From positions 409,450 through 463,261 of the forward strand of contig CAZLEV010000002.1 of assembly GCA_964558645.1 (NCBI GenBank): a stretch of DNA of 53,812 nucleotides. Reading direction: 5' to 3'. The notes under the pieces are model-generated. The model searched no databases, had not been told where the DNA came from, and saw nothing but the letters and a program-made list of their open reading frames with translations. The position numbers and the translations under genes are program-made. Positions 5,640 through 30,575 of this stretch are shown here, piece after piece (position 1 is the stretch's first letter; each line of letters opens with the position of its first letter). This DNA comes from an uncultured archaeon (GTDB lineage: Archaea; Asgardarchaeota; Thorarchaeia; Thorarchaeales; Thorarchaeaceae).

Positions 5640-5694
5640 TTCTTGATTTGAGAGGTAGAAATAGCAGCTCGGTAGAACCTATAATTTCATTCGG

Positions 5695-6222
5695 TCAGAA
5701 GAACATCCCTGACCTCATGGGGTACTTCTCCCGAAAGACCTTCTCAGCCTGCAACTCAAGATTCCGCCGAATGCTTGAGATGTCCGGGCTGAGCGACGTC
5801 AAGTCAGGTCTTGTGAGGACTGGCCCACTCAGATAGTGTTTCGCCTTCTGTCGGCCCAAGTCTGACGGATGGATTGGAGTTCTCTTGATGATCTCATCTA
5901 TCTTCGGACGACTGATTTCAGGATTCTCAATACCTCTGATCAGGTCTTCTAGGTCGTTGTTCGTGAGTGACCTCAGTCCAAATTCGGGGGTTGCCTTCAT
6001 ACGCTCAATGGAGGGGCTCTCGCCATCAAGCTCCACCCCGGCTCCTGTGAATCTGCCCGGACCCAGCGGGATGAGGCGAAGCTGATAGGCAGAGGTCGGT
6101 CCAACAACAAGCATATCGCCTACAGGGGTATGAAGCACGCGCCATCCTCTCGGGCGCTCACTGTACTGCTCTAGGATACGAGGAATAACATCCTCCACAG
6201 GCTCCGCATCGGGCAATCTCAT
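5695..6222 (-). CDS. Hypothetical protein
   Basis: 175-aa ATG ORF with protein-like composition. Confidence 0.65.
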   Translation of the reverse strand: MRLPDAEPVEDVIPRILEQYSERPRGWRVLHTPVGDMLVVGPTSAYQLRLIPLGPGRFTGAGVELDGESPSIERMKATPEFGLRSLTNNDLEDLIRGIENPEISRPKIDEIIKRTPIHPSDLGRQKAKHYLSGPVLTRPDLTSLSPDISSIRRNLELQAEKVFREKYPMRSGMFF

Positions 6223-6345
6223 TCAAGGATTCCTTTTCAGTGTATACTCATATTGGTATTGGTTCAGGTGAAGAATCGAACTGACTGGTGAAGCAACTCA
6301 TGTGTCGGGCCGAATCAAGGCTTTCTTGCATTGCATGTGCTAGGA

Positions 6346-6735
6346 CTATGGACGCATGGATAATACTTTCCCGAGGGGGGCAGCTGTTTCTAGACTTCCC
6401 CGCATAAGCCTCACGGACCTGTGCAAGGTGTGGATTCCATCACGCATGAATGAGTCGATGTCGCATACGACATCCTCCCATGGCCTCGATGGGTCGTTTA
6501 GATCCTGATGATCAATGATGTACTTGAAGGTGAGAGGCAGGCCATTCACTTCTACGCCAATGGCCGTGAATGTCACACGACGGATTCGTTGTTGATCATC
6601 TAGGAAGGGACTCTGGAAGTATTCCGGGTCATAGAGAACTACCGCAGCTCGATTGGCTGCCTCCATGAAGTCATCATAGTCTTCTAAGACAAGCGGAGGT
6701 ACGTAAACAGTTTCGCTGTTGCTCATTTTCTTCAC
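6346..6735 (-). CDS. Hypothetical protein
   Basis: 129-aa ORF followed upstream by an AT-rich promoter-like region at about 6835-6900. Confidence 0.65.
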   Translation of the reverse strand: MKKMSNSETVYVPPLVLEDYDDFMEAANRAAVVLYDPEYFQSPFLDDQQRIRRVTFTAIGVEVNGLPLTFKYIIDHQDLNDPSRPWEDVVCDIDSFMRDGIHTLHRSVRLMRGSLETAAPLGKVLSMRP

Positions 6736-6973
6736 CAGTCTGCTGTTCTGCCACTCCCCCCTACCCCTTCATTTCCGATGGAGGGGGAGGAGTAGGACCA
6801 GCCTTCTCTGGGCCTCCCGGCCCGCTACTAACCATATAACAACAAATACATATAAACATATCTATGTATTTTATAATTTCGTCAATTGTTTGATATTATC
6901 GTTGCTTGGAACACGTGTTCTAAGTGCTGTTTGGCGCGAAATGGGAAGTGAATAGACTGCCGATACGGGTTCT

Positions 6974-7441
6974 TCAGAGGGTCCCGCATACTCGCCGGAT
7001 TTTACGGATCTGTTCATGCTTGATATGCGCGAAGTATTGGAAGAGATGGCTGATGACTTCAGACTTTGCACGGGCAGCGATTGATAAGAAGAAGGTATAG
7101 CCCTTGATCTCCTGCTGTAGAGCCTTGTTGCAGATGAATATCCTTGGGTCAGTTTCAGCCCGCACCAAATCGAAAGGAGTCTCATCAGGAGAACTCTCGT
7201 CATCGAACTGGACGGCTTTCTCCACGGCATCCAGTATTCCGGTCATGATCATGTCCTCAATCTCTTCCGCGAGGTTCTCCTCCGACTCTGCAAGTACCAT
7301 CAACAGGGCCTTCGTCTTCGGATTCTCGACAGCCTCGGCAGCATCCGCATAGAACTTGTAATGATTGAGAGATGTTGCCAGCGCAAGATTCAGCATGTGT
7401 TCTACCTGACTCTTCGTACGACTCATCCTGCATTCATACAT
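6974..7441 (-). CDS. Ferritin-like/rubrerythrin family protein
   Basis: Two repeats of A..E..(G)Y.FY...A...K..F..LA..E..H four-helix pattern, partly degenerate. Confidence 0.7.
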   Translation of the reverse strand: MYECRMSRTKSQVEHMLNLALATSLNHYKFYADAAEAVENPKTKALLMVLAESEENLAEEIEDMIMTGILDAVEKAVQFDDESSPDETPFDLVRAETDPRIFICNKALQQEIKGYTFFLSIAARAKSEVISHLFQYFAHIKHEQIRKIRRVCGTL

Positions 7442-7526
7442 CCATACAATATCATGGAGAAATGAGTTTCGGACAGCTGTCCTAGACTTGGAAGGAGTTC
7501 GAAATCACCCAATAAACGGCTCTGTT

Positions 7527-8243
7527 TCAAGAGTTCTGAAAGCTCTCGGGGCTCTCAAGGTACTGCATCAACAGAGCATATTCGTCTCTATCCATGCTGT
7601 TTTCAAGCAGAGGTAGACCCTCGTCAACAAAGTCTATCACGGAATGGAGTCTGAGCCCCTCTGACTTGGCGCGCTCCCTGGCTCCCTGTTGCCGGTCAAT
7701 GAGAACCACAATGTCGTCACACCTGACATCGCTCAACCCTCGTCGTTCCACCTCACTGAGAACCTGCGAACGGGCAATCAGTTTACTATCCATTCCCGTC
7801 ACCAAGTCGTCAACAAGGCAGAGTATGTCGCCATCTTCAAGTCGACCCTCGAGAAGTCTGTGCTGACCATAGTCGGATAACGCCGCTGCTAAATCGGCCT
7901 CACTCCTGATGCCGGTCAGTTTCCGCGTATGACATGCGGGAAGACCTGAGTGTAGGGAGATTGCTGTAGCAATGGGGACGCCTGCAAAGGCAATACCCAC
8001 AACCCTGTTGGCATGTGATACCTTTTCTTCTATCAGAAGTGTCATGGCCTCTGCAGCCATTCTGAGGACGCGGGGATAGGAGCTTATGAGTCGAAGTTGG
8101 ATATAGAATGGGCTCCAGAGTCCTGATATCAAGGTCCAGCCTCTTGGTTGATCACGTTTCGAGGTGAGAAGCATTCCATTGTCGTAGAGTCCTGTCATGA
8201 TCTCGCGCTTCAGCGATAGGGGGATAGTGGTATCATCAACCAT
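7527..8243 (-). CDS. pyrE: Orotate phosphoribosyltransferase
   Basis: TLISGLWSPFYI, GVPIATAIS, PRPP motif LVDDLVTG, VLIDRQQG. Confidence 0.8.
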   Translation of the reverse strand: MVDDTTIPLSLKREIMTGLYDNGMLLTSKRDQPRGWTLISGLWSPFYIQLRLISSYPRVLRMAAEAMTLLIEEKVSHANRVVGIAFAGVPIATAISLHSGLPACHTRKLTGIRSEADLAAALSDYGQHRLLEGRLEDGDILCLVDDLVTGMDSKLIARSQVLSEVERRGLSDVRCDDIVVLIDRQQGARERAKSEGLRLHSVIDFVDEGLPLLENSMDRDEYALLMQYLESPESFQNS

Positions 8244-8340
8244 GATTTCCGCCTCGGAAGAGATTGTCCAGCCATCTCTTAACTGTGCTCCTACCAGTGC
8301 GAGTTCAAAGACTCATATATGTAGAAGCGAACAAAGATGT

Positions 8341-9390
8341 ATGGAAGATCCAGAGATAGTCGACTGGTTGCTCAGGGAAGGAGGACCGTCAGTACATTTC
8401 AGAACACTGGTCGACCTGGTCAGAGATAACGACATGCTGAAAGTGAGCTGTGCTCTTGATGACCTCATTAACAGCCCACTGGTTAAGCTCTGGTTGAGTA
8501 GGCTCGGAGGGGGCCTGTCATTCAAATCCCTCCATTCTGCCAGACCGGATGCGTTTGAGAATGCAATCGGCAAGCTAGTGCAGCTTGGAATGAGAGCCGG
8601 CCTCCAGCCGTTTGACAATCTGACCTTGAAGTATCGGGCTTGGCTCACCGACAACCTGTCTGGCGATGAAAAGGGAGGCGGACCGTTCAAGCACCTCATT
8701 CTAGCCTCATTTCTCAGTTACGCTGGATATCATGACACGACCACAGTTAATGACCTGCTTCAAGGGCGACTGAACTCCCTTCATATATTCGTGACCCAAG
8801 GAGACCTGTCGAACGTCTATGCGTCACCAGAGAGGCAAAAACAGGTACCTAGCAGTTACTCATCCCATAGATTGATCCGAGAAGGATTGAGGGGGAAACA
8901 CGGGCTAGCACTCCCCTACGTCCACGACCTTCTTGGTTTCGGTAGTTCACAGCAGATGCTTAGAGACCCTGTTCAAAGGGCGAAGCTGGAGCAGATTATT
9001 GATATGGTGATGACTGAGGAATATCAGTCGCTCCCACGGGGTTATGGAGTCATAGAGACAGCAGGGATATGTCGGGTCGTCGGATGGAGTATCCATCTAC
9101 CCGAACTGATGGCTGAGAGAGGGGCAGAAATGCTGCTGATGATGGAGCTCCTTGCACCTTTTCAACGAGGCAGAGAGAGCGCATGGTTCAAGGATGCCTG
9201 GCAGATAATCGAGATGCAAAAGACGGAACGAAACACCTACCGATTTCCAACGCGATGGTTGAGAGATCAACCTCGTGGCTATTGGATAAACGGTGCATAC
9301 ATGGCCTTGGGGCGTAGACGAGCAAATCCGATAATCGAACAGGAGTCAACCTTCAGGGTTCTGTGGTTGAAGCACTTGATGGCTCGTTAG
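8341..9390 (+). CDS. Hypothetical alpha-helical protein (prenyltransferase/terpene-cyclase-like fold)
   Basis: IVDWLL..GPSVHFRTLVDL N-terminus and ESTFRVL C-terminus; start taken as ATG 8341. Confidence 0.55.
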   Translation: MEDPEIVDWLLREGGPSVHFRTLVDLVRDNDMLKVSCALDDLINSPLVKLWLSRLGGGLSFKSLHSARPDAFENAIGKLVQLGMRAGLQPFDNLTLKYRAWLTDNLSGDEKGGGPFKHLILASFLSYAGYHDTTTVNDLLQGRLNSLHIFVTQGDLSNVYASPERQKQVPSSYSSHRLIREGLRGKHGLALPYVHDLLGFGSSQQMLRDPVQRAKLEQIIDMVMTEEYQSLPRGYGVIETAGICRVVGWSIHLPELMAERGAEMLLMMELLAPFQRGRESAWFKDAWQIIEMQKTERNTYRFPTRWLRDQPRGYWINGAYMALGRRRANPIIEQESTFRVLWLKHLMAR

Positions 9391-10486
9391 CAAGACCATC
9401 CCCTCCCTGTTCCGACTTGTTCATTCTGCGCCCCTTGAAGATGAACTGGGTCACAGAGAATCGGTTCACAACGAAGATCACACAGGGAACTGAGACGAGA
9501 ACTGCAACAGCAAACCTTAGGCCCCACAAAAGGACAGATGGTTCAAGGGGGAGACCCAGCAGTACAAAGGCAGCTGCGGGAATGAAGAAAGTCACCGGAT
9601 GGAGCTCGTATATCTCCTGTGCGTTTCTGCCTAGAGTCAGACCGATAGACCTCGCCCTCTCAGGGAGGTCTGTCAGGTAACTTGAAACGACAAAGACAAT
9701 GATGGAACCAAGTGTCCCAGTCGCTAGATATAGCAACACTGATTCACCAATCTTATCCACTGCAAGGTCGGTGAATCCGTTCATCTGCGATGCGAGGATG
9801 AGGCACACGCCCAGAAGAATCAGAATCAGAAAATCAACAGAGGAATTCTCAGTCCGCCACGATTTGAAACCTCGCAAATGCCGGATTTCGTTTCCAATCA
9901 GGACGAAAGTGGCAGAGATCAAGATGGCATTCAAGTGCCACGGAACCAATACAGGTGAAAAGAGAGATTGAATCCATACGGCCAGGAGGGGTAACACTGC
10001 AAATAGAGGATACCGGACCCAGTGTGGTTGCTTCCTCAATGCATGGTCCAGAACGACGAACAGAGAGAAACCGAAGAAGAGGACGGGAAGAAACCAGAGA
10101 TGTGTGACTGAGTCAGGAGGACCGCTACCATACAAGAACCAGAACAAGAGTTGGTCAGGGGTAAGATAGGTATCGACATATGGCGACACCAGTGCGAAGA
10201 GCAGCAGCAGCATCGCGTACAGTATGAAATAGGGAATCATGAACTGCCGGCCGCGTGTGAGGAGGAGGGTCTTGAAATCGCCCCGATGTTTCTCGTTGTT
10301 ATATGTGAGCCCTGTTAGAACAAAGAAGAGGGGGATCGTAAAGCTGCTCAGGTGAAGTGTGATGGCATTGATGGTCGGTATTATTGAATGGACCAGCATG
10401 ACAGAGAGAATCCCCACACCCTTGGCCATATCAACCCAGTCAAAGCGCCGGTGAGGAGCGAATACTCCATTCTTCATAGTTTTCAC
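9353..10486 (-). CDS. Acyltransferase family 3 membrane protein
   Basis: RFDWVDMAKGVGILSVMLVH, FTIPLFFVLTG, HLWFLPVLF, IYELH motifs. Confidence 0.88.
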   Translation of the reverse strand: MKTMKNGVFAPHRRFDWVDMAKGVGILSVMLVHSIIPTINAITLHLSSFTIPLFFVLTGLTYNNEKHRGDFKTLLLTRGRQFMIPYFILYAMLLLLFALVSPYVDTYLTPDQLLFWFLYGSGPPDSVTHLWFLPVLFFGFSLFVVLDHALRKQPHWVRYPLFAVLPLLAVWIQSLFSPVLVPWHLNAILISATFVLIGNEIRHLRGFKSWRTENSSVDFLILILLGVCLILASQMNGFTDLAVDKIGESVLLYLATGTLGSIIVFVVSSYLTDLPERARSIGLTLGRNAQEIYELHPVTFFIPAAAFVLLGLPLEPSVLLWGLRFAVAVLVSVPCVIFVVNRFSVTQFIFKGRRMNKSEQGGDGLANEPSSASTTEP

Positions 10487-10599
10487 TCGTCTTCAAACAG
10501 GAGGCTTTGGCAAACTTTTTAACACTGACCTTCGGGGATTTCCTACGGCTTCATTGATGTTGTCCACCGTACAAGGACGCCATCAGAAGCTCGCAAACT

Positions 10600-10765
10600 G
10601 CGTCCGTTGTCTATGATATCCCAGCATCTGGGGTATTGGCTAAGGGGCTATGATGGATCCCTGCCACGGATCCGGCAATCGCATCCATTTCGGATTCGAT
10701 CGGAAACCGGGAACTGCGTTCAGTTTCGAACGTGGTCGGGAGTTCGAGTCCCGGCGGACGCACCA
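10600..10765 (+). tRNA. tRNA-Gly(GCC) with three non-canonical introns (10614-10643, 10677-10706, 10712-10742); CCA encoded
   Basis: Removing three hairpin introns yields a canonical cloverleaf: GCGTCCG TT GTCT AGGGGCTA TGAT G GATCC CTGCCAC GGATC CGGC CCGGG TTCGAGT CCCGG CGGACGC A CCA. Each junction forms a BHB-like motif; the intron 1 boundary is least certain. Confidence 0.88.
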
Positions 10766-10810
10766 TTTCATCTTTCTAATCAAGAGTTCTGTGTGAGGAC
10801 CAAGAGAGTA

Positions 10811-12115
10811 TCAGAGCCGGGACATCTTGTTCACGGCTCTGGAGATACCCATTAGCGTCTTCTCGATGTCATCATCAGTGTGAGCAAAGGAGAGCGCCCC
10901 CAGGCCGTGGTAACCAAAGATGCACTCTTGCATAAGTAGGCCCTGGAAGATATCTTGTTGTTTATGATCGAAGAGCTTGCTAATCTGTCCAGGAGTTGTG
11001 ATGTCGTCTGGTGGCAGATTGGTGAGACAACTGATGAAGTTGATGGAGCCATATCCCGTACCGATGAGGCTGACCTTCTTCTCCTCAAGCATATCATTCA
11101 GTCGTTCTCGGAACACATCGCCCATCTTGTTCAAGCGGGAGAATTCGTCCTTCTTGGCTCTAAGCTGTTCCAAGACTGCCAACCCCGCGACCATTGTGAG
11201 AGGATGGCTTGAGAAGGTGCCTCCTCCCACCCAGCGGCCGCCCTTGGCACCGGGTACGGCCAGAGACATGATATCATCGCGGCCGCCATACACCCCAAGG
11301 GGCATGCCACCGGCAGCTGCCTTTCCCAGCGTCAGGAGATCGGGGGTGACACCAAATAGTCCGTCCCCGGCGGTTCCATACTTGAGGCGAAAACCGGTTA
11401 TGATCTCGTCAAATATGAGCAAGATGTCCCTTGACTCAGTCTCCTCACGGAGATACGAGAGGAAGTCGTCCTCTGGAGCGAGTCCCCCTCCGGCTCCAAC
11501 CACAGGCTCAACGATGACTGCTGCAATCTTCTTACCGTATTTCTTGAGCATCTCATCAAGGCTCGCCCTGCTGTTGAAGTCAAAAGACACTCCGTCGTAG
11601 AAGGGGTCATCAGAATAGGGGTACTTGAGGTGGAATGCTAGTGCATCATTACCGCCATGCCAGCCGCTCAGAGCCTTACCCACCAGCGGACGTCCTGTGA
11701 AGAGCCTAGCCAGCCGCACAGCGTACATGGTTGACTCGCTTCCAGTTGCTGTAAACCGCATCTTCTTGAGAATCGGTACTGCCTTTTGTATCTCCTCACC
11801 ATACTTGACTTGAAACTCCGTTGGCGCACCAAAGTGATATCCTGAGTCGAGTCTTGCCCGGACAGCCTCCACAACGTGGGGATTGTTGTGTCCCAGTATC
11901 ATGGAGTAGTGTGTCATCCACCAGTCGACATACTCATTCCCGTCAATATCCCATATGTGCCCGCCCTTGCCCCGTTCGATATACGGCGGGTACGACCCAC
12001 TGGTCGGCATACCGAAGGTGCGGATATTATGACTCACCCCGCTGGGAAACACTCTTGTTGCGCGCGCCCAGAGATCGCTTGACCTTCTGGTCCTTGAGGA
12101 GTAATCTTCAAGCAT
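10811..12115 (-). CDS. Class III aminotransferase, glutamate-1-semialdehyde aminomutase-like
   Basis: DIDGNEYVD, LIFDEIITGFR, PLP lysine in DLLTLGK, GGTFSSHP. Confidence 0.85.
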   Translation of the reverse strand: MLEDYSSRTRRSSDLWARATRVFPSGVSHNIRTFGMPTSGSYPPYIERGKGGHIWDIDGNEYVDWWMTHYSMILGHNNPHVVEAVRARLDSGYHFGAPTEFQVKYGEEIQKAVPILKKMRFTATGSESTMYAVRLARLFTGRPLVGKALSGWHGGNDALAFHLKYPYSDDPFYDGVSFDFNSRASLDEMLKKYGKKIAAVIVEPVVGAGGGLAPEDDFLSYLREETESRDILLIFDEIITGFRLKYGTAGDGLFGVTPDLLTLGKAAAGGMPLGVYGGRDDIMSLAVPGAKGGRWVGGGTFSSHPLTMVAGLAVLEQLRAKKDEFSRLNKMGDVFRERLNDMLEEKKVSLIGTGYGSINFISCLTNLPPDDITTPGQISKLFDHKQQDIFQGLLMQECIFGYHGLGALSFAHTDDDIEKTLMGISRAVNKMSRL

Positions 12116-12307
12116 CTGAAATCACCAAGTCCTGATAGAACTGTATGTTCCAATCATGTCGTGGATTTCAGTATTCCGACCATCGTTCAAAGGCGAGATA
12201 TGTCCTTGGTTTCAAGAAGTCAAATGCATTTCCCCATTCGGGAACGAAGCTGTTTTCAGTACAACCGTAGTTTCCCGTTACACTGATTTGAAGAGGTCTG
12301 CAAGACA

Positions 12308-13771: not shown

Positions 13772-14179
13772 ATGAAGAGAGTGTTGTTCCTCTGCACCGG
13801 TAATTCAGCACGCAGTCAGATGGCTGAGGTGCTTCTGCGCGAACTGGGAAAGGGAGAGTATGAGGCATTCAGCGCCGGAACAGACATTCAGACAGAGGTC
13901 AATCCTTTCGCCATCCAGGTACTCAGAGAGAGAGGCCTTGACACCGAAGAGCTCCATCCAAAGAAACTGGATCGCTTCAAGGGTGAAACATTCGACTTCG
14001 TCATTACTGTATGCGATAATGCAAGACAGCAATGCCCCTTCTTTCCTGGAGCAAGAGAGATGCTTCACTGGTCACTTGAGGATCCTGCAGGATTCGAGGG
14101 GAGCCATGAAGAGATTCTCTTGATCTTTAGGGAGACCAGAGTTGAGATTGAGAAGAGAATCAGGGAAACACTGCTCTAA
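13772..14179 (+). CDS. arsC: Arsenate reductase, LMW-PTP family
   Basis: LFLCTGNSARSQMAE, ITVCDNARQQCP, HWSLEDP. Confidence 0.88.
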   Translation: MKRVLFLCTGNSARSQMAEVLLRELGKGEYEAFSAGTDIQTEVNPFAIQVLRERGLDTEELHPKKLDRFKGETFDFVITVCDNARQQCPFFPGAREMLHWSLEDPAGFEGSHEEILLIFRETRVEIEKRIRETLL

Positions 14180-16257
14180 TCTTCAACCCAATCGAACTTC
14201 CGTTGCAGGAGTTTGGTGTATATATTTCTCCAGTCATAATCAACCTTCTCACACCAGTTGTAGACAATCTTCGGATGAATGTATGATTTGAGGGATGTGC
14301 CCAGATTCCACGTCCGAGAATTTCGCGCCAGTGCCCAGTCAACCTCTATCTTCTTCTTGGCCAGTTCAGCCTTCTTGACACGTTCCTTCGCCCGTTCAAC
14401 CATTTCTTTCCGTCGTTCGATTCTATCGTTGCCAACTTCGCGTGCGTCGATCAGAGCCTGTTTCTTCTTCTCTAGTATCTCCTGACTTCTGCGATAGGTC
14501 TCTGTGTAGTCCTGTACACGCGTCTTTGCCTTTTCCCATCGCTCTCGTGCCCGGTCAATCTTGGCCTGTGCCTCTTCCAAGCGTTCTTGTTTGGTCCGCT
14601 TGCTCTTTCTTCGGCTCTCACGGATTGCACGCTTCTCGGCGCGGGCATTGTCCCATGTCTCTTTTGCCTTGTCGCGTTTCTCGCGATATTCTGCCAGCTT
14701 CTCTTTGCGTTTTTCAACGACATCCTTCTGTTTCTCGATCAGCTCTTTCTTCTTCTTGAGCCGTTCCCTTTCCGTCTTACGGCGTTTCTTGAGACGCTTC
14801 TTCTTGTCCGCAAGTGCCTTCTCAGCCTTGGCAATACGCTTATCCGCCTTCTTCAGCCGCTCTTCGAACCGCTTGTCACGTCTTGGCCAGCTCTTGGGAG
14901 CCTGCTTGGTGTGATTCATGATACGAGCCACTTCTAGATTGGCCCGCTTGGCTGCCGCCTTCTTGATGAAATCCGGGTCCTTCTTCGATACTTTGCTCTC
15001 CTTGAGCTCCTCTCTCATAGTGACAGACGCATGGTGCGTCCGGAACATCTTCGCGGTGAGATCTGGGTACACCTCACTGAGGAACTGGTTCACATCGTGA
15101 CTCCGGACCTTGGGAAAGATCTGGGCCATCTTCTTTGGGTCGGCCTTCGTCTTCTGGTGCTTTCGGGATTTGAACGAGGCAACCCGATCCTCAGCGTTAT
15201 CGTACAGCTCACGAAAGACCTTGTAGACATCATCAGGCGTCTCCAGTTCCTTATGCCAAGGAACGCTGTCTTTCCCCAAGAAGTCGAATGTTATCAGCCC
15301 GTTCTTTAAGGTGAGATGCTCAAAACGCAGAGTTGTGGCTCCTACGGTGTCTGCCTCGTCCTTGTCCTTCTCATCTCCCACTCGCAGGTTCAGACGGTCA
15401 ATCAGGTAACATGCAGCTGCTATCTCGCGCACCTTTGCGTCGGCCGAATGGAGCCCTCTCATGATGTGCTCACGGACATCGTCTATGTGCTTCTGCAACC
15501 TCAGGGCACTGTCAAACTTCTCGGCTTCTCGTTGCTGCTTTATTGGTGTGCAGTCATGGAGCCAGATGTACTTGTTCTTGCCTGTCAGTTCATCTTTCCA
15601 CTTCGCAATCCAGAGGCACTCAGGTTTCCAGACGATCTCCCTCCAGTTCCCCTTGGGCCTAGGTGCATCAGGAGAAAGGTTCAGGGTGATGTCCTGATGA
15701 GTGGCGCCCTGCTTCCAGCGACCGCGGAGAGGGTGTTCGCCTCTTCCCATGAAGATTCCAGAAGGTTCCGTCATATAACTGGCGAGTTCCATGCGCTCGC
15801 CGTCAACCTCGGCGTAGCCATACTCTTCCTTGAGCCCCTCGCGTTGCTCTTTCCGTTCCTCCCGTGCTCTCTTCTTTTCCTCGTTCGTCATGGCCTCTTT
15901 CGCAGCTTGCTCTTCTTCCACATACTGTTTCACTTGCGAGAAATCGACTTCGTCAAGAGAGAGGGGAGGATTGAAGCCGAGGGCTCTACTAAAATCAGCC
16001 ATGAAATTCTCAATGAACACGTCGTCTTCAATATACGGCGTGCCAAGCTTCTTCACCCATGCTACTGCCATCGCTTGCTGTTTCTCATCAAGGGTGATTC
16101 TTTCGCCTCGGACCTCAATCTCCAGACCTTGGGACTCTGCCGGCTCGAGCACGATTAGTCCGTTATGCTTCAGGCTTTCCATTACTACATGAAACCTCTT
16201 CGATTCATTTACAAGCTCAAGAATAGACGGGTCTAGTTCGCTTGTTCTTCTCGTCAT
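14176..16257 (-). CDS. DNA topoisomerase IB (eukaryote-type) with long coiled-coil linker
   Basis: LKHNG, EPSGIFMGRGEHPLRG, LRVGDEK, FLGKDSV, AKMFRT, NH and the catalytic Tyr in LGTSLKSYI; start taken as ATG 16257. Confidence 0.93.
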   Translation of the reverse strand: MTRRTSELDPSILELVNESKRFHVVMESLKHNGLIVLEPAESQGLEIEVRGERITLDEKQQAMAVAWVKKLGTPYIEDDVFIENFMADFSRALGFNPPLSLDEVDFSQVKQYVEEEQAAKEAMTNEEKKRAREERKEQREGLKEEYGYAEVDGERMELASYMTEPSGIFMGRGEHPLRGRWKQGATHQDITLNLSPDAPRPKGNWREIVWKPECLWIAKWKDELTGKNKYIWLHDCTPIKQQREAEKFDSALRLQKHIDDVREHIMRGLHSADAKVREIAAACYLIDRLNLRVGDEKDKDEADTVGATTLRFEHLTLKNGLITFDFLGKDSVPWHKELETPDDVYKVFRELYDNAEDRVASFKSRKHQKTKADPKKMAQIFPKVRSHDVNQFLSEVYPDLTAKMFRTHHASVTMREELKESKVSKKDPDFIKKAAAKRANLEVARIMNHTKQAPKSWPRRDKRFEERLKKADKRIAKAEKALADKKKRLKKRRKTERERLKKKKELIEKQKDVVEKRKEKLAEYREKRDKAKETWDNARAEKRAIRESRRKSKRTKQERLEEAQAKIDRARERWEKAKTRVQDYTETYRRSQEILEKKKQALIDAREVGNDRIERRKEMVERAKERVKKAELAKKKIEVDWALARNSRTWNLGTSLKSYIHPKIVYNWCEKVDYDWRNIYTKLLQRKFDWVED

Positions 16258-16314
16258 CGAGAGGGTGCCAAAAAAAGGATTGTGCTTTGGATGGAAGGAA
16301 ATGCTTCCCCAACC

Positions 16315-16351
16315 AAAAAAAAGATAGGGCCGAGTCTCGGGCGAGACTCGG
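16315..16351 (-). terminator. Hairpin plus U-run, terminator-like
   Basis: Perfect 10-bp inverted repeat CCGAGTCTCG-GG-CGAGACTCGG (16330-16351); T8 run 3' of it on the minus strand. Confidence 0.5.
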
Positions 16352-16611
16352 GGGGCTTGATGAGCCTTCTTACCAAGGCTCAACCAAAACAGGGGGCAGA
16401 TCTTCTGGATTCATTTTGTTTCAGAGTATTGTTCATGCCTACGTTAGTGTTCTACACTGCTCCCCAGTCAGCATTATACAATGAAGAGATAGAGTTCCTT
16501 TTCAATAGGAGAAGGTGTTCTGTTAGAGTTTCGAGGGGCGAATATATAGCAGACGCGCCAACATCTATGGCTCAATAGACATAATGGGCAGCGCGATTAA
16601 AGGCAGGCGAT

Positions 16612-16735
16612 CCTTCTGCTTGCTCCTGGGTGGCTCCAGAAGTTGATGGCGACATCAGGCAGAAGACGGATGGAACACAGAAGTCCGTAGGTGGGATTCA
16701 CTCCCTTAATGGACTCAGCCTCAAAACCATGTGTG
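16612..16735 (+). ncRNA. Orphan omegaRNA-like scaffold (3' part) plus putative guide (16702-16735)
   Basis: 64/87 ungapped identity of 16617-16703 to 23329-23415 downstream of tnpB, with compensatory base changes; ends GAAGTCC..GGATTCAC. Confidence 0.7.
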
Positions 16736-16781
16736 TGGTGCGGCCGCCGGGAATCGAACCCGGGCCATCAGCTTGGAAGGG
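16736..16781 (-). repeat. 3' half of tRNA-Gly(TCC), att-like duplication
   Basis: 32 nt identical to 23449-23480, extending to the anticodon loop TTGGAAGGG; anticodon stem variant GCTGA versus GGCTG. Confidence 0.9.
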
Positions 16782-16796
16782 GATGAACCGGACTTC

Positions 16797-19700
16797 TCAG
16801 TGAAAGAAACCCTCCAGAACCTCGAAGAACTCCTCCACATTCACTATGTGAAATCGACTCCAGTCACCCTCATCCAATAGCTGCAGAATGCTATTCACTA
16901 CCTCATCAGCATCAATACGTCGTGGAAGCTCCCATGAAACAGAGTCAAGAAGCTCATCTACCTCTCCAGCTCGTTTCACCTCCAGAGTGAGCGTCCTCCT
17001 CTGCAAGTCAGCCTCCAGTCGGGCTGGCATTTGCCCATCCCTCAGGCCCCGCGCCTCAAGTGCGCTTCTGATTCGAGCGCGCTGAGCTTCTGGATCATAG
17101 ATCGATTCTTCCGGAATCTCTGACGTGATATTCCTCCAGAGATCATCCAAGACCTCTGAGAGCTCTCGGACTACATCCAATTTATAGGTGAATGAGCGGT
17201 TCTTCCAGTATTCCCCCGTCAGACTGGACAGTGCTGCCCATTCGAGCCAGTCAGCTCTGATGGTCAAAGATATCTCCCATCTCTGCTGCTCAGCTCGAAG
17301 ATAGGTCCCGGGTTTCAGAGATGAAACCTCGAGTCCGCTCTTCCGCAGAATCTTTCTAATGAGTGGGCTCTCGCGGAAGACCATGTTCTCTCGCTGAACG
17401 TCTGATGGAAGAATGACTTTGACAGGATGAATCGTAGAATCGAAGACTATGCTCTCGGTTCCGAGTCGGAGGATGATCTCTCTATCAGTAAAAAGGCCGC
17501 AGAAGGCATCCGAGATTCTCTCATTCTCTCCCTCAAGAATTGACTGCCAGCATCTACCATGTTCCTTCCCCTCTCCCGAAGCCAGGGGACACTCGTTCTC
17601 GTTGTGGGATAGTCGAAAGCTGATCTCCTTACCACAGGGGAGGGCCTGTAGGTCCGCTATTCTTGCCGGTAGTCGGATATCAGCTGTTTCGGGAATGAAG
17701 GTCTCACTGACATTGGCCATGAGTGAGAGATCTCCATATTCGATGTCATTAAACCGGTCCCAGGAAACCATATGCCCAGACGATAGCCTTACAGGTAGAC
17801 CTTTGCTAGTGAGGGTCAATGTTTCGATGAGATTTGGCGTGAAGTGATGCTCTATCATCTGTAGGGACTCATCATCTTCGTTCTTGATGTCCACTCTGCA
17901 TCCCTCATCTGTCCACGACAGCTCCACTGACACATCTGTCTGCCCTTGAATCCGCCTGAGGACACGTCCAACAGCCTTTTCGAGTCGATGAGATAGACTG
18001 GCTGGAACCAAGATGTCAGTAGATCTTCGTGAGACTGGTTCTAAGATGGGGCCTTGTCTAGTGGCCCGGAGCATCGCAATTGAGCCCGTTGCTCTACCAG
18101 GGATGAAGTCGAATATGCTCCTTAGAATCCAGTCCGACTCCTCTGTTTCTCTTGTCCAGAACAACCAATCCCCATTGTTCTGCTGGAGAGCCAGAGAGAT
18201 GCGAGAGCCTGTATCCATGAGTTCGCGGACACTGTCAATGCGCTCTGAGATATCACTCTCAGCCCATTGCATCCCATCAGGGCGTGTAGCCAGCCTTTTG
18301 TTGAAGAAGCCCACAAGGACTCTAGCAGGATTCCTCGGGTCTTCCAGTGCAACAATGCTGATTGGTTGGTCAGGATCCTCTGAGTAAACTATCTGACCAA
18401 AGCTGGCAATCCTAGGTTTGGGAAGTTCAACAGTCTTAGGATAGGAGTCCCTCGCCTTGGATCTCTTATGCTTGGGACCACGATAGAGTCGGTGAGCATT
18501 GATCTGGCCGAGGAAGATATCGGCAAATGTCTTCTGCCCTCTTGTGCGAGGAGGACGATACCTGAGCCTATGCAGTAGAGGGGGTATATCTGCGGGTTCA
18601 CGGGAAACAGACCGTCTTGTTATTGTCAGACCTTCCATAGACTCATGAAACTCGTCGAAGGAGTCACGGAAAGCATCTGAGAGGGTCACACCGGGTGATA
18701 CCTCTGTGTTGGGCCACAGGTCAGCCAACCAGGGGAGCAGGCTCAATGCCAGCGACCTGATCCTCTCTCGAACCCACGCCTTCGGTACAACCTGCTCCTG
18801 TAGTTCAGACATCTCTGTCTTGGCCCGATCATATTCTTCGGTCCTGAACTTGGTAGCCCAGTGTCTAAGAACCGGGATGTGCAGAAGTGAGGTCTCAAAC
18901 CCGGAGGACGACTGGGCCACCACGACCCTGATGTCATCAAACATGGGGCTTCGAGGAGCGGACTGGCGGTGCCACGAGTCCGGGTCGATGACTCGTTCAG
19001 GCGCACATGGGAGGTTCCATATGATCTCATCCAGTTCACCCACAAGGGGAGAGGTATCACGAACAGGAATCAGGCAGTTGGTCGAGTAGATTGGAGTTCT
19101 TCGCTCATACTTCACCGGCCTTGAGAACCAGAGGATGGTTGTCTGTTCATCATCGGATAATCGGTCTACCAGCTCAGCCAGCAAGCGGTTCTTGCGGTCT
19201 CGATACGGTGAGGGCGTTGAGCCTTCAATCGCGTCCCACCCTGACACAACTAGCAGACGGGGCTGTTTCACTTTGTCTTCCAACACCCTCGACAGGTCAA
19301 GCATCGGGCCGTCATTGTAGAGGTATGCCTGAATGCCAGCAAAGAGTGGTTTGAACTCTATGGACTGGAGGGTTTCCTGCACTGCATCTGGCAGACCGTT
19401 CTCGGCCGGCCGCAGACGCGCCCTGAACCGAACCGCCCCAAACGAGGTTGTGGGGAACTCGTCAGCCAAGTCAAGCCAGACAACACGCAGGTCAGGAGTG
19501 GACTCTCGCAGCTGGTGGATCATCTGCAGGCCGTGATAGTGTCCTGCAATCCAAGCAGCCGAGGAGCCCGCTGATGTGGGAGATGCGGCCGAAACATAGA
19601 GGATGAAGCGTCTGGCTCGAATCCCAGCACCGGTCAATGGGTCATAGGGCGGTCTCCATTCCTGCGGCACCGAGGGCTGTCTGTAGTCTGGAGTGTGGTC

Positions 19701-21380
19701 CTGACTGTGGACCACGAGAGCCATGCGTGGTCTCAGGCCATTCCTCGAGACCTCATAGGTCGTCCTGCGTCCGGAGAGGTCATCCGTCAGGCTCGACTCG
19801 AGAGCCCGGACGACCAGACCCCGTATCATGCGCCTGCTCTCTCTGCTCTCATCAGTCGGGTCCATGACGAGTGTGGCCCGAATCACCCTTGGAGGACTCT
19901 CGAGATGCGCAATCGATCCGAAGGCCTCAGACAGGGCCTCCGCATAGGCATCCAGCTGGGTCACGGTGTTCGGCTCAGGGGTGCCATCAACGACCTGCAC
20001 CCACTCGTTGGGGCTGAGGGGACGCAGCGAGAGCCTGAACCGCGGAACCACCCGCTGGACCATCCCGTATCGCTTCCGAGATGACGAAGACCTCCGTTCA
20101 GGCTCCATGTACCACTTGAACCCGCAGCGGGTCTTGATCTCCACTACCATCACGGGGCGCCAGAGGGTACGTAGACCTGTGGGGGTGGCCTCCCTTCTGA
20201 ACACCACCAGATCTGCTCTGCCCTTGCCCAGCGAGGTCTCCAGCGGGAGCTCTGCGACAATCCTGAGACCTCCTCCGGCCCCATCGCGGTCATCGTCGCG
20301 GATGGCTCTCCGTACATCCAGAAACCGGTCGAATCGGTCCGTGATGCGCCTGTGGACCTGGGCACCCACCCTCTTCGTCCATCGAACCGCACTCTGCCAC
20401 AGGTGGCTCACATCGTCACTGGTCAGGCGTGGTGCCTTCTTCCCGTGCTCGTCCGTCAGGACCTCGGACCCGCCTGACAGGATTCGGGCAAACTCCCCGA
20501 TCACGGCCGGACTGACTCCACCCTCCTGAGCCTCTGCCAGCTGCTCTTCGAAGAAGTCCATGCTGAACCGGGGACGGGGATACTCCGCATGAGAGGACAC
20601 GGTCTCAGGCTCACCCACACGAACACCGTGGTGTGCCGCAATGTCATCACGGATCTCCCGCAGGAGTCGCACCGTCCCGTCCCTGAAGCCTGGCGACCCG
20701 TGTTCGAACTCCGTGTACAGGTGGTCAAGATACGTCCGTGCCCGGAGAATGAAGAGGTTGCTGTACCTGCGTGTGTCCCGCACCGACACATCATGGATGT
20801 AGGCGTCCGTGTTCAGGACCTGGATATGCTGTCGGAGAGCGTCCATGAAGTCCAGCTCGGTGAGGAAACGGTGGACGGAAGGATAGGCAGGCCAGCGTGA
20901 GTCGCCCGCGTACCCGTAGTCGATGTGCTCTCCCTTCTCGTTGAACAGGGGCTGGGGTTGCCCCATGGGATAGTAGATCGCCCCAAACTCCCGCAGGGCC
21001 GCGCCCCCCACATTGAACCGCTGATTCAGCGGCCCTACCTCCTCGTACCATCGCCGAGCACGCGTGGTCTCGGTGCAACCGTAGAGCGCCGCGTTCTCTT
21101 CCAGCATGTCCAGGCCGTTCTTCCTGATGTTGTGCTCCGCCTTCATCACGTGGGTGAAATTGGGGTTGCCCATGACCTTGGAGATTCGGTAGGCCTCGGT
21201 GTAACGGCGGAGGATGTCGCGCGAACTCTCGTACAGGTGACGGGTGGTCTTGCTCTGGATGGTGCGCTGCAGGTAGACAGCCGTGGACAGGCCTGTCCTC
21301 ATCGCCCGTGCCAGCACCCTGTTCGGATGCCTCGGGTACGGCCTCGCCCGCGGGCCTCGACTCCCTCTCATACGCATCAC
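16797..21380 (-). CDS. Large protein with PD-(D/E)XK nuclease domain and degenerate ATPase-like domain
   Basis: ELPL..GRADLVVF..VVEIKT..QLDAYAEAL (RecB/Cas4-type motif order), then RRFILYV..SAGSS..VVWLDLA..LLVVSGWD. Confidence 0.65.
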   Translation of the reverse strand: MMRMRGSRGPRARPYPRHPNRVLARAMRTGLSTAVYLQRTIQSKTTRHLYESSRDILRRYTEAYRISKVMGNPNFTHVMKAEHNIRKNGLDMLEENAALYGCTETTRARRWYEEVGPLNQRFNVGGAALREFGAIYYPMGQPQPLFNEKGEHIDYGYAGDSRWPAYPSVHRFLTELDFMDALRQHIQVLNTDAYIHDVSVRDTRRYSNLFILRARTYLDHLYTEFEHGSPGFRDGTVRLLREIRDDIAAHHGVRVGEPETVSSHAEYPRPRFSMDFFEEQLAEAQEGGVSPAVIGEFARILSGGSEVLTDEHGKKAPRLTSDDVSHLWQSAVRWTKRVGAQVHRRITDRFDRFLDVRRAIRDDDRDGAGGGLRIVAELPLETSLGKGRADLVVFRREATPTGLRTLWRPVMVVEIKTRCGFKWYMEPERRSSSSRKRYGMVQRVVPRFRLSLRPLSPNEWVQVVDGTPEPNTVTQLDAYAEALSEAFGSIAHLESPPRVIRATLVMDPTDESRESRRMIRGLVVRALESSLTDDLSGRRTTYEVSRNGLRPRMALVVHSQDHTPDYRQPSVPQEWRPPYDPLTGAGIRARRFILYVSAASPTSAGSSAAWIAGHYHGLQMIHQLRESTPDLRVVWLDLADEFPTTSFGAVRFRARLRPAENGLPDAVQETLQSIEFKPLFAGIQAYLYNDGPMLDLSRVLEDKVKQPRLLVVSGWDAIEGSTPSPYRDRKNRLLAELVDRLSDDEQTTILWFSRPVKYERRTPIYSTNCLIPVRDTSPLVGELDEIIWNLPCAPERVIDPDSWHRQSAPRSPMFDDIRVVVAQSSSGFETSLLHIPVLRHWATKFRTEEYDRAKTEMSELQEQVVPKAWVRERIRSLALSLLPWLADLWPNTEVSPGVTLSDAFRDSFDEFHESMEGLTITRRSVSREPADIPPLLHRLRYRPPRTRGQKTFADIFLGQINAHRLYRGPKHKRSKARDSYPKTVELPKPRIASFGQIVYSEDPDQPISIVALEDPRNPARVLVGFFNKRLATRPDGMQWAESDISERIDSVRELMDTGSRISLALQQNNGDWLFWTRETEESDWILRSIFDFIPGRATGSIAMLRATRQGPILEPVSRRSTDILVPASLSHRLEKAVGRVLRRIQGQTDVSVELSWTDEGCRVDIKNEDDESLQMIEHHFTPNLIETLTLTSKGLPVRLSSGHMVSWDRFNDIEYGDLSLMANVSETFIPETADIRLPARIADLQALPCGKEISFRLSHNENECPLASGEGKEHGRCWQSILEGENERISDAFCGLFTDREIILRLGTESIVFDSTIHPVKVILPSDVQRENMVFRESPLIRKILRKSGLEVSSLKPGTYLRAEQQRWEISLTIRADWLEWAALSSLTGEYWKNRSFTYKLDVVRELSEVLDDLWRNITSEIPEESIYDPEAQRARIRSALEARGLRDGQMPARLEADLQRRTLTLEVKRAGEVDELLDSVSWELPRRIDADEVVNSILQLLDEGDWSRFHIVNVEEFFEVLEGFFH

Positions 21381-21626
21381 ACTCTCTTCGCAGAGAAAAC
21401 TATCGTTGCTCCTGTGACCATATCAAAAAGTAGGTTTAATGTTTTTCGATTGAGAATTTAAGGTGTAGAGGATGAATAGACTAATTTAGTTAATTGTTTG
21501 GTCAAATTGCTTCATAGGTTTAAATGCTTTCATACTTACTCATTGTAGGAGTTCAAAACGCCTTCTGAAGCACAGGATGGCGAGTGAACTCCACTGACCG
21601 GACAGGTCAGAGGTTTAAATGCGAAG

Positions 21627-23312
21627 ATGATGGCGATGGTGACGTCCCAGGAACCAGTAATCACGGTCAAGATCCCCATCAACTGGGAGATGATGACTGC
21701 GAGGGCGCAACAGCGACTGCGGCAGACGGTTGGCAGGGACACCAGAGTCATCAGGGCGTTCTTCGGGATCATCGAGGAGAACGAGGAACAGCTCTTGAGG
21801 GGGAGGAACAGGGACCGTATCGATGAGAACAAGCTGCATGCCATGACCATGACCGCCCTGAAGGTGGCCGATGGGCAGGAGCAGCGCCCTGAGGTTGAAC
21901 ATGACCTGAAGGAGCAGTTCCCGAGGATATCGGCCAACGAGTTGAGTGAGTGCCGCAGGGTGGCGGTGGCGAACTATGAGAGCTACTTGGCTTTAAGGAA
22001 GAAGCGGTGGCGGAAGGCATCACGTCCCAGTGAGGTGAACCGGAGTCAGCGGATACCGAGAAGGATCTTCATACCATATCGGGCTGAGCTGGTTCGTCAT
22101 GAAACCACTGTGGCAACGTGGTGGTTGGAGCTGCGTGACTCGCTGGACTCGGTCCCCGAGGGTCGGCGGGTGCATGATAGGCTGACTGTGCCGCTGAAGA
22201 CCTCGCCCTTCCACCTTGAGCAGCTGGACAGAGGAGATAAGAAGTCTGTACAGGTGTTCACGGATAGGCAGGGGAAGTGGTGGGCGGCTGTGGCAGTGCG
22301 GTTGCCCGAGGTTGAGACTGAATCGGACCTGCCTCCGGCGGTGCTGGGAATCGATTTGGGGATCAACCGTGCTGTGTGTACGACCTTAGTGACTCCCGCC
22401 AAGGTCTCAGAGACCCGGTACTTTGTCCAGGAGCACAAGGTCAGGCTCATGAAGAGGTATGATGATAGGTTTGCTGACCTGCAGCGGGAGCTTGAGTTCT
22501 GCAAGACGGATGAGGAGCGCCACGACAACGTTGCTGCTAAGCTCCGAAGTCTTCGCTCCAAACGGGAACAGGTCTCCAAGGAGTACGACCGCCTCACTGT
22601 AAGCAGACTCATCTCCTACATTGAGGAACTGAGTCTCAAATATACAGTCTATGTTGCCATCGGCCGGGTCAAGGGCATCCGCAATACTGCTCGAAAGGGG
22701 AACTACAAGGGAAGGAAGTTTCGAGGGATGGTGCATCGCTGGAGCTTTGGGCGGGTGACGCGCACGCTCAAACATGGGCTCGAGCAACGAGGTTGGAGAA
22801 CCCAGGGGGAGAAGAGTCGATTTCACGTGGTTCCTGAGAACTGGACCTCCATCACCTGCTGGAAGTGTGGAAACAGAGGGATTCGACCGAAGCAGTCCCT
22901 CTTCATCTGTCACACCTGTGGGTTCAGAACGAATGCTGATAGAAACGGTTCCCTAAACATTGCGCGTCGATTAATCACGCTCATTCCTTCACTTACGAAT
23001 GAGAACGGACTAGGGCGGTGGGCCACTCCTGAACGGAGGCTCGGTTCAGCCCCGAAGGCTGTAAGGAAGGCTCGCTCTTCTAAGCAGAAGTCCGCACTCT
23101 CTCACAACGGTCAGGCATCAGGTCGGAGAGAGTCCGCGGTGGTTCGCCCCGCTCAGATGAGCATCCTTGACTTTGGCGACGAGGTCGAGGTTGGCGATGA
23201 TGATAGTGCCGTGGGAAAAGCTGTGGAAAGACTCTCTGCTCCCGGAATGGATGCGTCCGGAACAGAGCAGGAGAAGGAAGCCCGGACTGCAGGAGGGCCC
23301 GTGTCCCGATGA
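21627..23312 (+). CDS. tnpB: TnpB-family RNA-guided nuclease with rearranged (Fanzor-type) RuvC
   Basis: RuvC-I LGIDLGI; VAIGRV at the canonical RuvC-II position; VPENWTS then CWKC..CHTC zinc finger; RuvC-III NADRNGSLNIA. Confidence 0.9.
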   Translation: MMAMVTSQEPVITVKIPINWEMMTARAQQRLRQTVGRDTRVIRAFFGIIEENEEQLLRGRNRDRIDENKLHAMTMTALKVADGQEQRPEVEHDLKEQFPRISANELSECRRVAVANYESYLALRKKRWRKASRPSEVNRSQRIPRRIFIPYRAELVRHETTVATWWLELRDSLDSVPEGRRVHDRLTVPLKTSPFHLEQLDRGDKKSVQVFTDRQGKWWAAVAVRLPEVETESDLPPAVLGIDLGINRAVCTTLVTPAKVSETRYFVQEHKVRLMKRYDDRFADLQRELEFCKTDEERHDNVAAKLRSLRSKREQVSKEYDRLTVSRLISYIEELSLKYTVYVAIGRVKGIRNTARKGNYKGRKFRGMVHRWSFGRVTRTLKHGLEQRGWRTQGEKSRFHVVPENWTSITCWKCGNRGIRPKQSLFICHTCGFRTNADRNGSLNIARRLITLIPSLTNENGLGRWATPERRLGSAPKAVRKARSSKQKSALSHNGQASGRRESAVVRPAQMSILDFGDEVEVGDDDSAVGKAVERLSAPGMDASGTEQEKEARTAGGPVSR

Positions 23313-23323
23313 CCGCAGTCAAA

Positions 23324-23448
23324 GATCTTGCTTGCTCTGGGGTGGCTCCTAGAGTTAGTGGTGACACTGGGCAAGAGAAGGGCGGAACACAGAAGTCCAA
23401 AAAGAGGGTTCACTCATCTTGTATCGTTCTATTGGAAGGTCAAGAAAG
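23324..23448 (+). ncRNA. tnpB-linked omegaRNA scaffold 3' region plus putative guide (23414-23448); 5' end probably inside the tnpB tail
   Basis: Hairpins CTCTGGGG/TCCTAGAG, TAGTG-GTGA-CACTG, TCTTGC/GCAAGA and terminal AGTCC/GGGTT, then TTCAC. Confidence 0.7.
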
Positions 23449-23524
23449 TGGTGCGGCCGCCGGGAATCGAACCCGGGCCACAGCCTTGGAAGGGCTGAAT
23501 CCTAAACCCCTAGACAACGGCCGC
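23449..23524 (-). tRNA. tRNA-Gly(TCC), intronless, CCA encoded
   Basis: GCGGCCGTTGTCTAGGGGTTTAGGATTCAGCCCTTCCAAGGCTGTGGCCCGGGTTCGATTCCCGGCGGCCGCACCA. Confidence 0.96.
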
Positions 23525-23538
23525 CAGGGTCTACGAGA

Positions 23539-23854
23539 GGACTATCAGTGGAAGGGTCGGGTCATCATGATTCGACCCCTTCTCCAAATGTGCCTCTGGA
23601 GTCAAGGGTGCCAAAGCTGTGGATTTAAGCCTATTGCTAGAGTGAACGCTTTGGATGTATTAGTGGAAGGCTGGGATCATGCTTTGATTCGAGCCCATTC
23701 ACTTACACCAATGGAACATATCGGTGGAAGGCTGGGATCCGGTTTAGATCCAGATTTCATTGCGATAGCAAACGGACATATTAGTGGAAGGGTGGCATCC
23801 TATTTGCAACAACCTCAATTCATAGAATGGACGAATCAGTGGAAGGCCATTATC
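23539..23854. repeat. Degenerate ~60-bp-period repeat array, consensus GGA-N2-4-ATYAGTGGAAGG-N5-RTC
   Basis: GTGGAAGG at 23548, 23663, 23724, 23784 and 23839; related copies at 30219, 30335 and 30436. Confidence 0.8.
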
Positions 23855-30176: not shown

Positions 30177-30352
30177 AACCCCTAGACAACGGCCGCGGAA
30201 GTCTAACGAGGATCATCAGTGGAAGGAGCGAATCATGTCGATTCGGCCCCTTTCTAGCATGCGCCTCTGGGGTCAAGAGTGGCTAGAATGCGGTTTTAAG
30301 CATATTGCTAGAGTGAGCCCTCAGGATGCTATCAGTGGAAGGCATGGGTCCT
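30177..30352 (-). repeat. 5' 20 nt of tRNA-Gly(TCC) plus diverged copy of its upstream region
   Basis: 30177-30196 identical to 23505-23524; similarity continues (GCCTCTGG.GTCAAG, TTTAAGC.TATTGCTAGAGTGA) to about 30352 versus 23680. Confidence 0.88.
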
Positions 30353-30575
30353 TTGTTGGATGACATATAGCGAAACCGAAGACAGACAAATCAGTAAGCG
30401 TATTGCAGTGGCGCCGCGAGTTGACAGTCCGGGGAGTGGAAGGTGGATCCTTGCCTGCGAGGTCCGCCTCTCCTTCAGGCCATGCGGCTGGTCGAAGTGA
30501 TAGAATGACCGGTTCATCTCGAACAGAACAACAGATATCTGGAGGAGAAGCAGACAGGAGTAGCGCGCTGAGTGC

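Follow-up and report, generated by a model that had tools for sequence, protein, structure and literature searches.

The stretch of Thorarchaeota DNA studied here, called the window (53,812 nt; C2:409450-463261 of the host genome G000, which measures 3.6 Mb and is 93% complete), carries a TnpB element lodged at the 3' end of a tRNA-Gly(TCC) gene, together with two copies, A and B, of an RNA scaffold. The scaffolds are omega-RNA/right-end modules of TnpB elements, and their family is abundant in this Thorarchaeota family. Copy B follows an intact gene for a 561-aa TnpB, and copy A is the TnpB-less remnant of an earlier occupant, which abutted the old tRNA 3' end. An earlier, sequence-only reading had seen here a system in which guides are swapped between two conserved flanks. 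The explanation that we favor, with a probability of about 0.6 for the whole, is that the tail following each scaffold belongs to the element's right end, not to a guide cassette, and that the guide lies on the tRNA end. Cas12 and the eukaryotic Fanzor proteins descend from TnpB, and no known organisms are closer relatives of the eukaryotes than the Asgard archaea.

Copies A (16617-16703) and B (23329-23415) are identical at 64 of 87 positions in a gap-free alignment, as had been reported from the letters alone. When copy B was slid along both strands of the whole window, the mean was 21.8 identities (standard deviation 4.1) and the second-best placement gave 41. The differences between the copies are compensatory: TGATG-GCGA-CATCA in A stands against TAGTG-GTGA-CACTG in B, and TTCTGC/GCAGAA against TCTTGC/GCAAGA. 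Both scaffolds end in TTCACTC, within GGTTCACTC or GATTCACTC, and are followed by unrelated tails of 32 nt in A (16704-16735) and 33 nt in B (23416-23448); the lengths of 34 and 35 nt given earlier hold if the count starts from TTCAC. Beyond each tail comes TGGTGCGGCCGCCGGGAATCGAACCCGGGCCA, the antisense 3' end of tRNA-Gly(TCC). To this extent each tail does abut a tRNA-Gly end, as had been claimed, but the tRNA sequence at 16736 is only a fragment that reaches to the anticodon arm.

The compensatory changes are real and form part of a fold that covaries across a structure alignment of eight sequences from seven genomes (A, B and six copies from other genomes). The fold is a Y-shaped three-way junction with a GNRA hairpin on one arm and an invariant GGAACACAGAAGTC after the junction. 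In the alignment 90.6% of its cells are paired, compared with 34-51% when the partners were slid, and double changes, on both sides of a pair, occur at 15 of 26 pairs; none of 500 shuffles reached the observed values. Several positions are G-U in most sequences and on the opposite strand would be A-C mismatches. Because G-U pairs stand at many positions, the RNA is assigned to the + strand, that of tnpB. Inspection by eye gave no consistent partner in the tails for a pseudoknot with the invariant GGAACACAGAAGT. R1, the covariance model built from this alignment, matches only A and B in the window, with 103.4 bits (E 2.5e-22) for the orphan scaffold A (16604-16703, + strand) and 110.8 bits for scaffold B (23316-23415, + strand), which has the three-way junction, the GNRA hairpin, an invariant GGAACACAGAAGTCC and the end GGTTCACTC. 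An Rfam scan of the window returned tRNAs and nothing else. Scaffold B starts 4 nt past the TnpB stop codon on the same strand, and this position, together with the strand fixed by the G-U pairs, bears out the suggestion that these are TnpB scaffolds of the omega-RNA type.

A covariance-model scan for the arrangement of scaffold, variable segment and tRNA-Gly, as the sequence-only reading had advised, was productive. Of 86 genomes of the same taxonomic family, 59 have R1 matches, more than 465 copies in all. In 16 genomes, which represent seven genera, we confirmed that the scaffold is followed by a tail and then by antisense tRNA-Gly(TCC), in constant order and orientation. Among these are G000 (twice), G001, G003, G005, G013, G018, G020 (twice), G023, G050, G056, G057, G058, G067, G078 and G080. 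All seven top R1 matches lie at the tRNA-Gly(TCC) locus; six directly adjoin the tRNA, and in G001 a second TnpB (55% identical) has come to lie between the first scaffold and the tRNA. The TnpBs of the tRNA-Gly-tied top loci form one group in the tree (support 87/87). The one exception is G095, in which the copy lies inside a sense-oriented 3' fragment of another tRNA. Decayed tRNA-Gly-linked copies are present in G018, G005, G023 and G067. The tRNA-Gly(TCC) site has been reoccupied repeatedly, and the proposal that successive occupations leave orphans is supported: A lies beside a displaced tRNA fragment, and the site was reoccupied in other genomes. The second TnpB of G001 (locus L067, G001:C6, 10844-12950) is of the C26 type and comes with a scaffold of its own and a tail of 51 nt, so that TnpB elements are stacked in tandem next to the tRNA. 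At five loci (L075 in G095:C64, L080, L083, L089 and L091) right ends of the family are followed by sense tRNA 3' parts or T-arm-like sequence (GGTTCGAATC, GTGTTCAAATCACGC..CCA), and tRNA genes may be the general neighbourhood of this TnpB family.

The intact tRNA-Gly(TCC) gene of the window (23449-23524, - strand), called by ARAGORN and Rfam, is the sole TCC gene found in the assembly. The displaced 3' fragment (16736 to c. 16793, - strand) begins at the acceptor end, includes the anticodon loop and decays in the anticodon stem; its first 32 nt equal 23449-23480 exactly, and TTGGAAGGG is also common to both. Between fragment and gene lies an island of about 6.7 kb, bounded by a direct repeat of the tRNA 3' part (16736-c. 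16793 and 23449-23506, the fragment being the distal copy), and the tRNA gene is left intact. The island holds only two genes, tnpB (21627-23312, + strand) and a divergent open reading frame (ORF) of 1527 aa, ORF1527 (16797-21380, - strand). The divergent promoter region between them (21381-21626) has two TTTAAAT boxes and GAGTGAAC, which is complementary to GTTCACTC, and the whole region is conserved in four genomes. ORF1527 and TnpB also occur as a pair in relatives, the respective identities being 88 and 90% in G001, 43 and 88% in G003, and 44 and 67% in G013. Since the intergenic region is conserved end to end, ORF1527 and TnpB are one unit; a separate TnpB-only insertion sequence (IS) with its left end near 21500 was rejected for this conservation. 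Within tens of bases of the giant gene's stop codon, a variably decayed tRNA-Gly fragment ending in TTGGAAG is found in five genomes (G000, G001, G002, G003 and G013), and the unit has therefore been inserted in tRNA-Gly(TCC) and supplies a tRNA 3' part of its own. A single 13.4-kb insertion with its own tRNA-Gly was likewise rejected, because G001 has the ORF1527-TnpB island but not the segment at 23.5-30.2 kb.

Scaffold A has no TnpB directly upstream, yet relatives of its scaffold type adjoin the TnpB 3' end in G080. The genome-wide TnpB search gave no match upstream of it, and GATTAA at about 16595-16600, a stop-codon-like trace, is all that remains of a TnpB ORF there. Because G001 and G002, of the same genus, have the displaced tRNA fragment without a scaffold beside it, scaffold A is specific to G000 and a remnant of an earlier TnpB element.

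The 561-aa TnpB has the RuvC-I motif GIDLG, a CxxC..CxxC zinc finger and the RuvC-III motif NADRN. It matches Cas12f1-like_TNB (5e-11) and OrfB_IS605 in Pfam, Cas12f in PADLOC and a transposase in PHROGs. In an alignment to solved TnpB and Cas12f structures, the canonical position of the RuvC-II glutamate is not Glu; judged by this alignment, the RuvC-II is of the rearranged type, which is treated in PMC10691335 (Altae-Tran et al. 2023). Elsewhere in G000 there are three further long TnpB genes (one truncated at the end of a contig) and nine short TnpB fragments, mostly C-terminal. About 20 related scaffolds lie 3' of TnpB genes or of C-terminal TnpB remnants in this genome, and six are miniature fusions of left and right ends. 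In these six (e.g., G000:C26:18200-18440, C2:404400-404600 and C13:103950-104160) the left end is joined to the last c. 50 nt of the scaffold plus the tail, and a TCTRGAA-like sequence stands on both sides. Such flanks resemble a target duplication, or a target similar to the element junction, and are atypical of IS200/IS605.

The multi-copy relatives bear on whether the tail is a guide or part of the right end. Conservation runs on for 24-45 nt past TTCACTC in all multi-copy relatives examined. It extends for 24-32 nt in families 1 and 2 of the own genome, in the six copies resembling miniature inverted-repeat transposable elements, and in about 15 G013 copies, where the conserved end reads ..GGTTCACTC-ACTCAACTG-TAAGAAACATGTTATC (..GTTATC), then NNGA(A), and the flanks diverge only afterwards; other families have 38-45 conserved nt. 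The bases flanking GTTCACTC pair, with full compensation between families: GAAGT/ACTTC, CAGTTG/CAACTG, GGGA/TCCC (A) and GGGG/CCCC (G003). The mean energy of the duplex around GTTCACTC is -6.4 kcal/mol, compared with -4.4 +/- 0.4 with exchanged partners, and none of 200 shuffles was as low, in a test whose rows include many related copies and whose independence is overstated. In tail A, the strand that closes the hairpin is probably TCCC with GGGA (duplex -5.3 kcal/mol), followed by a degenerate right-end linker, and CAGCC..ATGT..TG is common to tail A and the tail of the A-like G080 copy. Tail B, probably a right-end tail as well, contains TTGGAAGG, which equals the anticodon-loop core, and ends in GGTCAAGAA-AG (TCAAGAA), as in family 2. 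The tRNA-Gly-linked tails of four genera have GTCTAGGA in common, 3-7 nt before the tRNA. We take the tail, at somewhat better than even odds, to be part of the right end. The multi-copy ends run on, the first tail bases form a hairpin and the end motif adjoins the tRNA; for these reasons A and B probably have one and the same guide, which overlaps the 3' end of tRNA-Gly. Guide B would then probably begin in the last c. 12 nt of tail B and run into the tRNA, and the 3' end of the intact tRNA-Gly(TCC) is the likely guide-matching sequence.

Several observations weigh against this explanation. Between B and its closest relatives in G001 and G003 (TnpB 88-90% and scaffold about 90% identical), similarity becomes random exactly past TTCACTC, and the same pattern would be expected from an element boundary there. 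At this point the closest orthologues of the single-copy tRNA-Gly lineage diverge; the boundary at 24-45 nt comes from the multi-copy relatives. Tail lengths range from 17 to 51 nt, tail A has no end motif, and the pairing of tail B with the pre-loop bases is weak (-2.2 kcal/mol). The motif GT[CA]..NRGRA, present in 6 of 17 tRNA-linked tails and in none of 17 trailers of unoccupied tRNA-Gly genes, is a pattern picked after the data had been viewed, and purine-rich tRNA trailers could imitate it. The contigs of the one RNA run found, a salt-lake metatranscriptome, contained only relatives of the TnpB ORF (85-95%) and tRNA-like pieces, and covered neither scaffold. Finally, the island, which encodes ORF1527 and TnpB only, has no integrase, Y1 transposase or serine recombinase. 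The 93%-complete genome likewise gave no match to the Y1 transposase family PF01797, for which control genomes were positive, and none to the serine transposase family PF00239; its single tyrosine recombinase is on C1, outside the island.

The sharp loss of homology past TTCACTC is what an ordinary omega RNA would show if its scaffold ended at TTCACTC(A) and the first 16-20 nt of the tail were the guide. Such a guide would come from local flanking DNA, either the old tRNA trailer or debris of older elements, and the guides of A and B would differ and match their own site only. The tails of A and B are indeed unrelated, and in the own genome (all 16-mers, up to two mismatches) they gave only chance-level matches besides themselves, as a donor-site guide should. 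This account is set against the 24-45 conserved nt past TTCACTC in every multi-copy relative examined, the covariation of the first tail bases with the pre-loop bases, and a shared end motif that adjoins the tRNA in several genera, and we consider it possible but rather unlikely. The same searches bear on the idea of a cassette anchored at the tRNA, with fixed flanks between which guides are exchanged and with orphans such as A serving the single TnpB in trans on other targets. Host or viral DNA matching the guides would be expected of it, but neither tail has a target beyond chance in the genome, nor any match in viral contigs (20-mers). Every helix of scaffold A is intact, with compensatory changes, and orphan scaffolds persist at tRNA-Gly in G018 and G005, both of which would suit a cassette; the intact fold of A can, however, be inherited from a formerly active element. 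The downstream flank is merely the tRNA gene, each scaffold has one slot and there is no array, and the tails vary by indels and in length (17-51 nt), not as swapped units. With the tail conserved as a right-end tail in the multi-copy relatives, the exchangeable cassette is an attractive yet unsupported reading that is corrected here, and we hold it to be very improbable.

A further alternative places the guide inside the scaffold. Downstream of Asgard tnpB genes a hypervariable stretch was described between a conserved T and GTTCACTCA (PMC10691335; Altae-Tran et al. 2023), and for aCas1-linked Asgard TnpBs that work proposed such an internal guide. In the present family this reading would make a spacer-like guide of the 10-14 hypervariable nt that separate GAAGT from GTTCACTCA, with GTTCACTCA serving as a repeat-like 3' handle. 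The stretch is indeed hypervariable between otherwise conserved blocks, but it has just 10-14 nt in this family and pairs, with compensatory change, with bases past GTTCACTC, and hence behaves as a hairpin strand; we give the internal guide very little credence. As far as covariation can tell, the hairpin around GTTCACTC is the explanation of the "hypervariable region" between the conserved T and GTTCACTCA of Asgard TnpBs. The earlier claim of an undescribed system is weakened. The key motif of the RNA family, GTTCACTCA with its hypervariable stretch, is already in that paper; the site-specific link of one TnpB lineage and its giant partner to tRNA-Gly(TCC) is new.

In the explanation that we favor, with the tail as part of the right end, copy B is the guide-RNA gene of the intact 561-aa TnpB. 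TnpB and the gene for the 1527-aa putative nuclease/RecA-like protein make up one conserved unit of about 6.7 kb between the rebuilt tRNA-Gly (23449-23524) and the displaced fragment (16736-c. 16793), and the older element A would have been displaced together with the old tRNA 3' fragment. The tail would consist of the strand that closes the hairpin around the GGTTCACTC loop, a linker and an end motif, and would evolve fast through substitutions and indels. The sequence after the tail would be the guide; it would comprise the final trailer bases and the antisense acceptor and T-arm of tRNA-Gly and be essentially identical in A and B. As in other OMEGA elements, TnpB would cut unoccupied copies of its own site, and repair would copy the element in.

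For ORF1527, nothing usable came from Pfam (a weak HSDR_N_2 match only), PHROGs, PADLOC or the protein atlas. A D..ExK motif near residues 390-416, together with the weak HSDR_N_2 match, suggests a candidate PD-(D/E)xK nuclease. An AlphaFold2 (AF2) model of the protein from 5 sequences had a predicted local distance difference test score (pLDDT) of 37 and was discarded; an AF2 model of residues 330-900 from 35 sequences reached a pLDDT of 87.7. Foldseek matched the central part of the model to the ATPase cores of RAD51/RadA, DnaB and KaiC (E about 1e-5, target template-modeling score about 0.4), a RecA/RAD51/KaiC-like fold. A word-indexed search returned seven ORF1527 relatives, and both of those with an organism name are labelled Thorarchaeota. 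The full profile search gave 172 cluster representatives, mostly of 1400-2350 aa and some with C-terminal TPR repeats. Distant members of the family also are divergent from, and adjoin, a TnpB gene. In three contigs a TnpA of the IS607 type, with MerR helix-turn-helix and resolvase domains, overlaps the 3' end of the distant giant gene, and no tRNA lies beside the TnpB end in any of the three. In L150-L152 (Joint Genome Institute and Logan contigs; genes of L150 at 3682-12290), an ORF1527 homologue of 1893 aa has a 707-aa TnpB on one side and a serine recombinase of the IS607 type on the other, an arrangement that resembles a three-gene transposon with giant cargo. Given the distant pairs of giant gene and TnpB, the pairing is an older module. 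The association with tRNA-Gly and the loss of TnpA are features of the Thorarchaeota lineage.

Some further features of the tRNA-Gly neighbourhood were noted. A second, diverged direct repeat (23508-23700 and 30179-30370, about 75-80% identity, 6.7 kb apart) comprises the tRNA-Gly 5' part (ACCCCTAGACAACGGCCGC) and a leader of about 170 nt. Between its copies lie ORFs of 316, 430, 711 and 391 aa without clear Pfam families. This segment is missing in G001, where the tRNA leader runs straight into a match to the window from c. 30395 onward. TTGGAAGG, the anticodon-loop core and crossover point of the island, is present in tail B too (23432-23439). In the region 23432-23850, the tRNA leader repeats units of the GTGGAAGG type at intervals of about 60 nt; these resemble anticodon-arm fragments and may be debris of repeated recombination at the tRNA-Gly site. 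The host gene adjoining scaffold A encodes a topoisomerase IB of the eukaryote type (14176-16383; Topoisom_I_N, Topoisom_I, Topo_C_assoc), and its synteny with tRNA-Gly is kept in G001 and G005. A match to the T-arm and acceptor of tRNA-Gly lies at 10732-10780, where ARAGORN and Rfam call no tRNA.

Much of this arrangement is familiar from the OMEGA modules of IS200/IS605 and IS607 elements (ISDra2 type): a structured RNA across the tnpB 3' end and the right end, on the tnpB strand; a TnpB with RuvC and zinc finger; decayed and miniature copies scattered in the genome; and a guide expected in the DNA flanking the right end. The present elements differ in that no Y1 or serine TnpA was found in island or genome, in being a single-copy lineage tied to one tRNA gene and paired with a giant gene, in the rearranged RuvC-II, and in a tail that is unusually variable past the conserved loop. 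The Asgard aCas1-TnpB groups (Cas1H-Asgard-1/2, PMC10691335) share the Asgard host and GTTCACTCA with a hypervariable stretch downstream of tnpB, but here no Cas1-like gene stands beside the TnpBs and the hypervariable stretch is a hairpin strand. ORF1527 and its neighbours gave no Cas1 signal, and the single PF01867 match of the genome is a canonical Cas1 on another contig (C4). IS607-like transposons with cargo (serine TnpA, TnpB and extra genes) resemble the island in that distant 1527-aa homologues are divergent beside TnpB; the island has no TnpA, and on its distal side it is bordered by a tRNA fragment that immediately follows the stop codon of the giant gene. Like tRNA-targeting integrative elements, the island is inserted at a tRNA gene and a 3'-part repeat keeps the gene intact, and like the homing guides of type V-K CRISPR-associated transposons (PMC11406308; 10.1101/2021.02.06.429022), its RNA may have a fixed guide matching a tRNA gene. 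It differs from both in having no integrase and no Tn7 machinery, and guide-directed insertion is what we infer for it. Unlike a CRISPR-like cassette, it has one tail per scaffold, no second repeat but the tRNA gene, and no targets in genome or viral contigs.

In sum, at least 16 genomes keep an Asgard TnpB lineage at a single conserved host site, namely the tRNA-Gly(TCC) 3' end; a conserved giant partner gene accompanies TnpB in distant lineages too, and the covarying hairpin gives a structural account of the "hypervariable region plus GTTCACTCA" of the literature. Provided that the guide does lie on the tRNA end, the lineage would represent a naturally occurring TnpB whose fixed guide targets a tRNA gene. 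A further step, which we regard as unlikely, is that this lineage, with its guide fixed on the tRNA-Gly(TCC) 3' end, and its giant partner, a PD-(D/E)xK-like nuclease plus a RecA/RAD51-like ATPase, form an island that has no recombinase and spreads when unoccupied tRNA-Gly genes are cut under RNA guidance and homology drives the copying, its own tRNA 3' half rebuilding the essential gene. If true, the tRNA-homing guides of CRISPR-associated transposons would have in this island a counterpart based on a nuclease.

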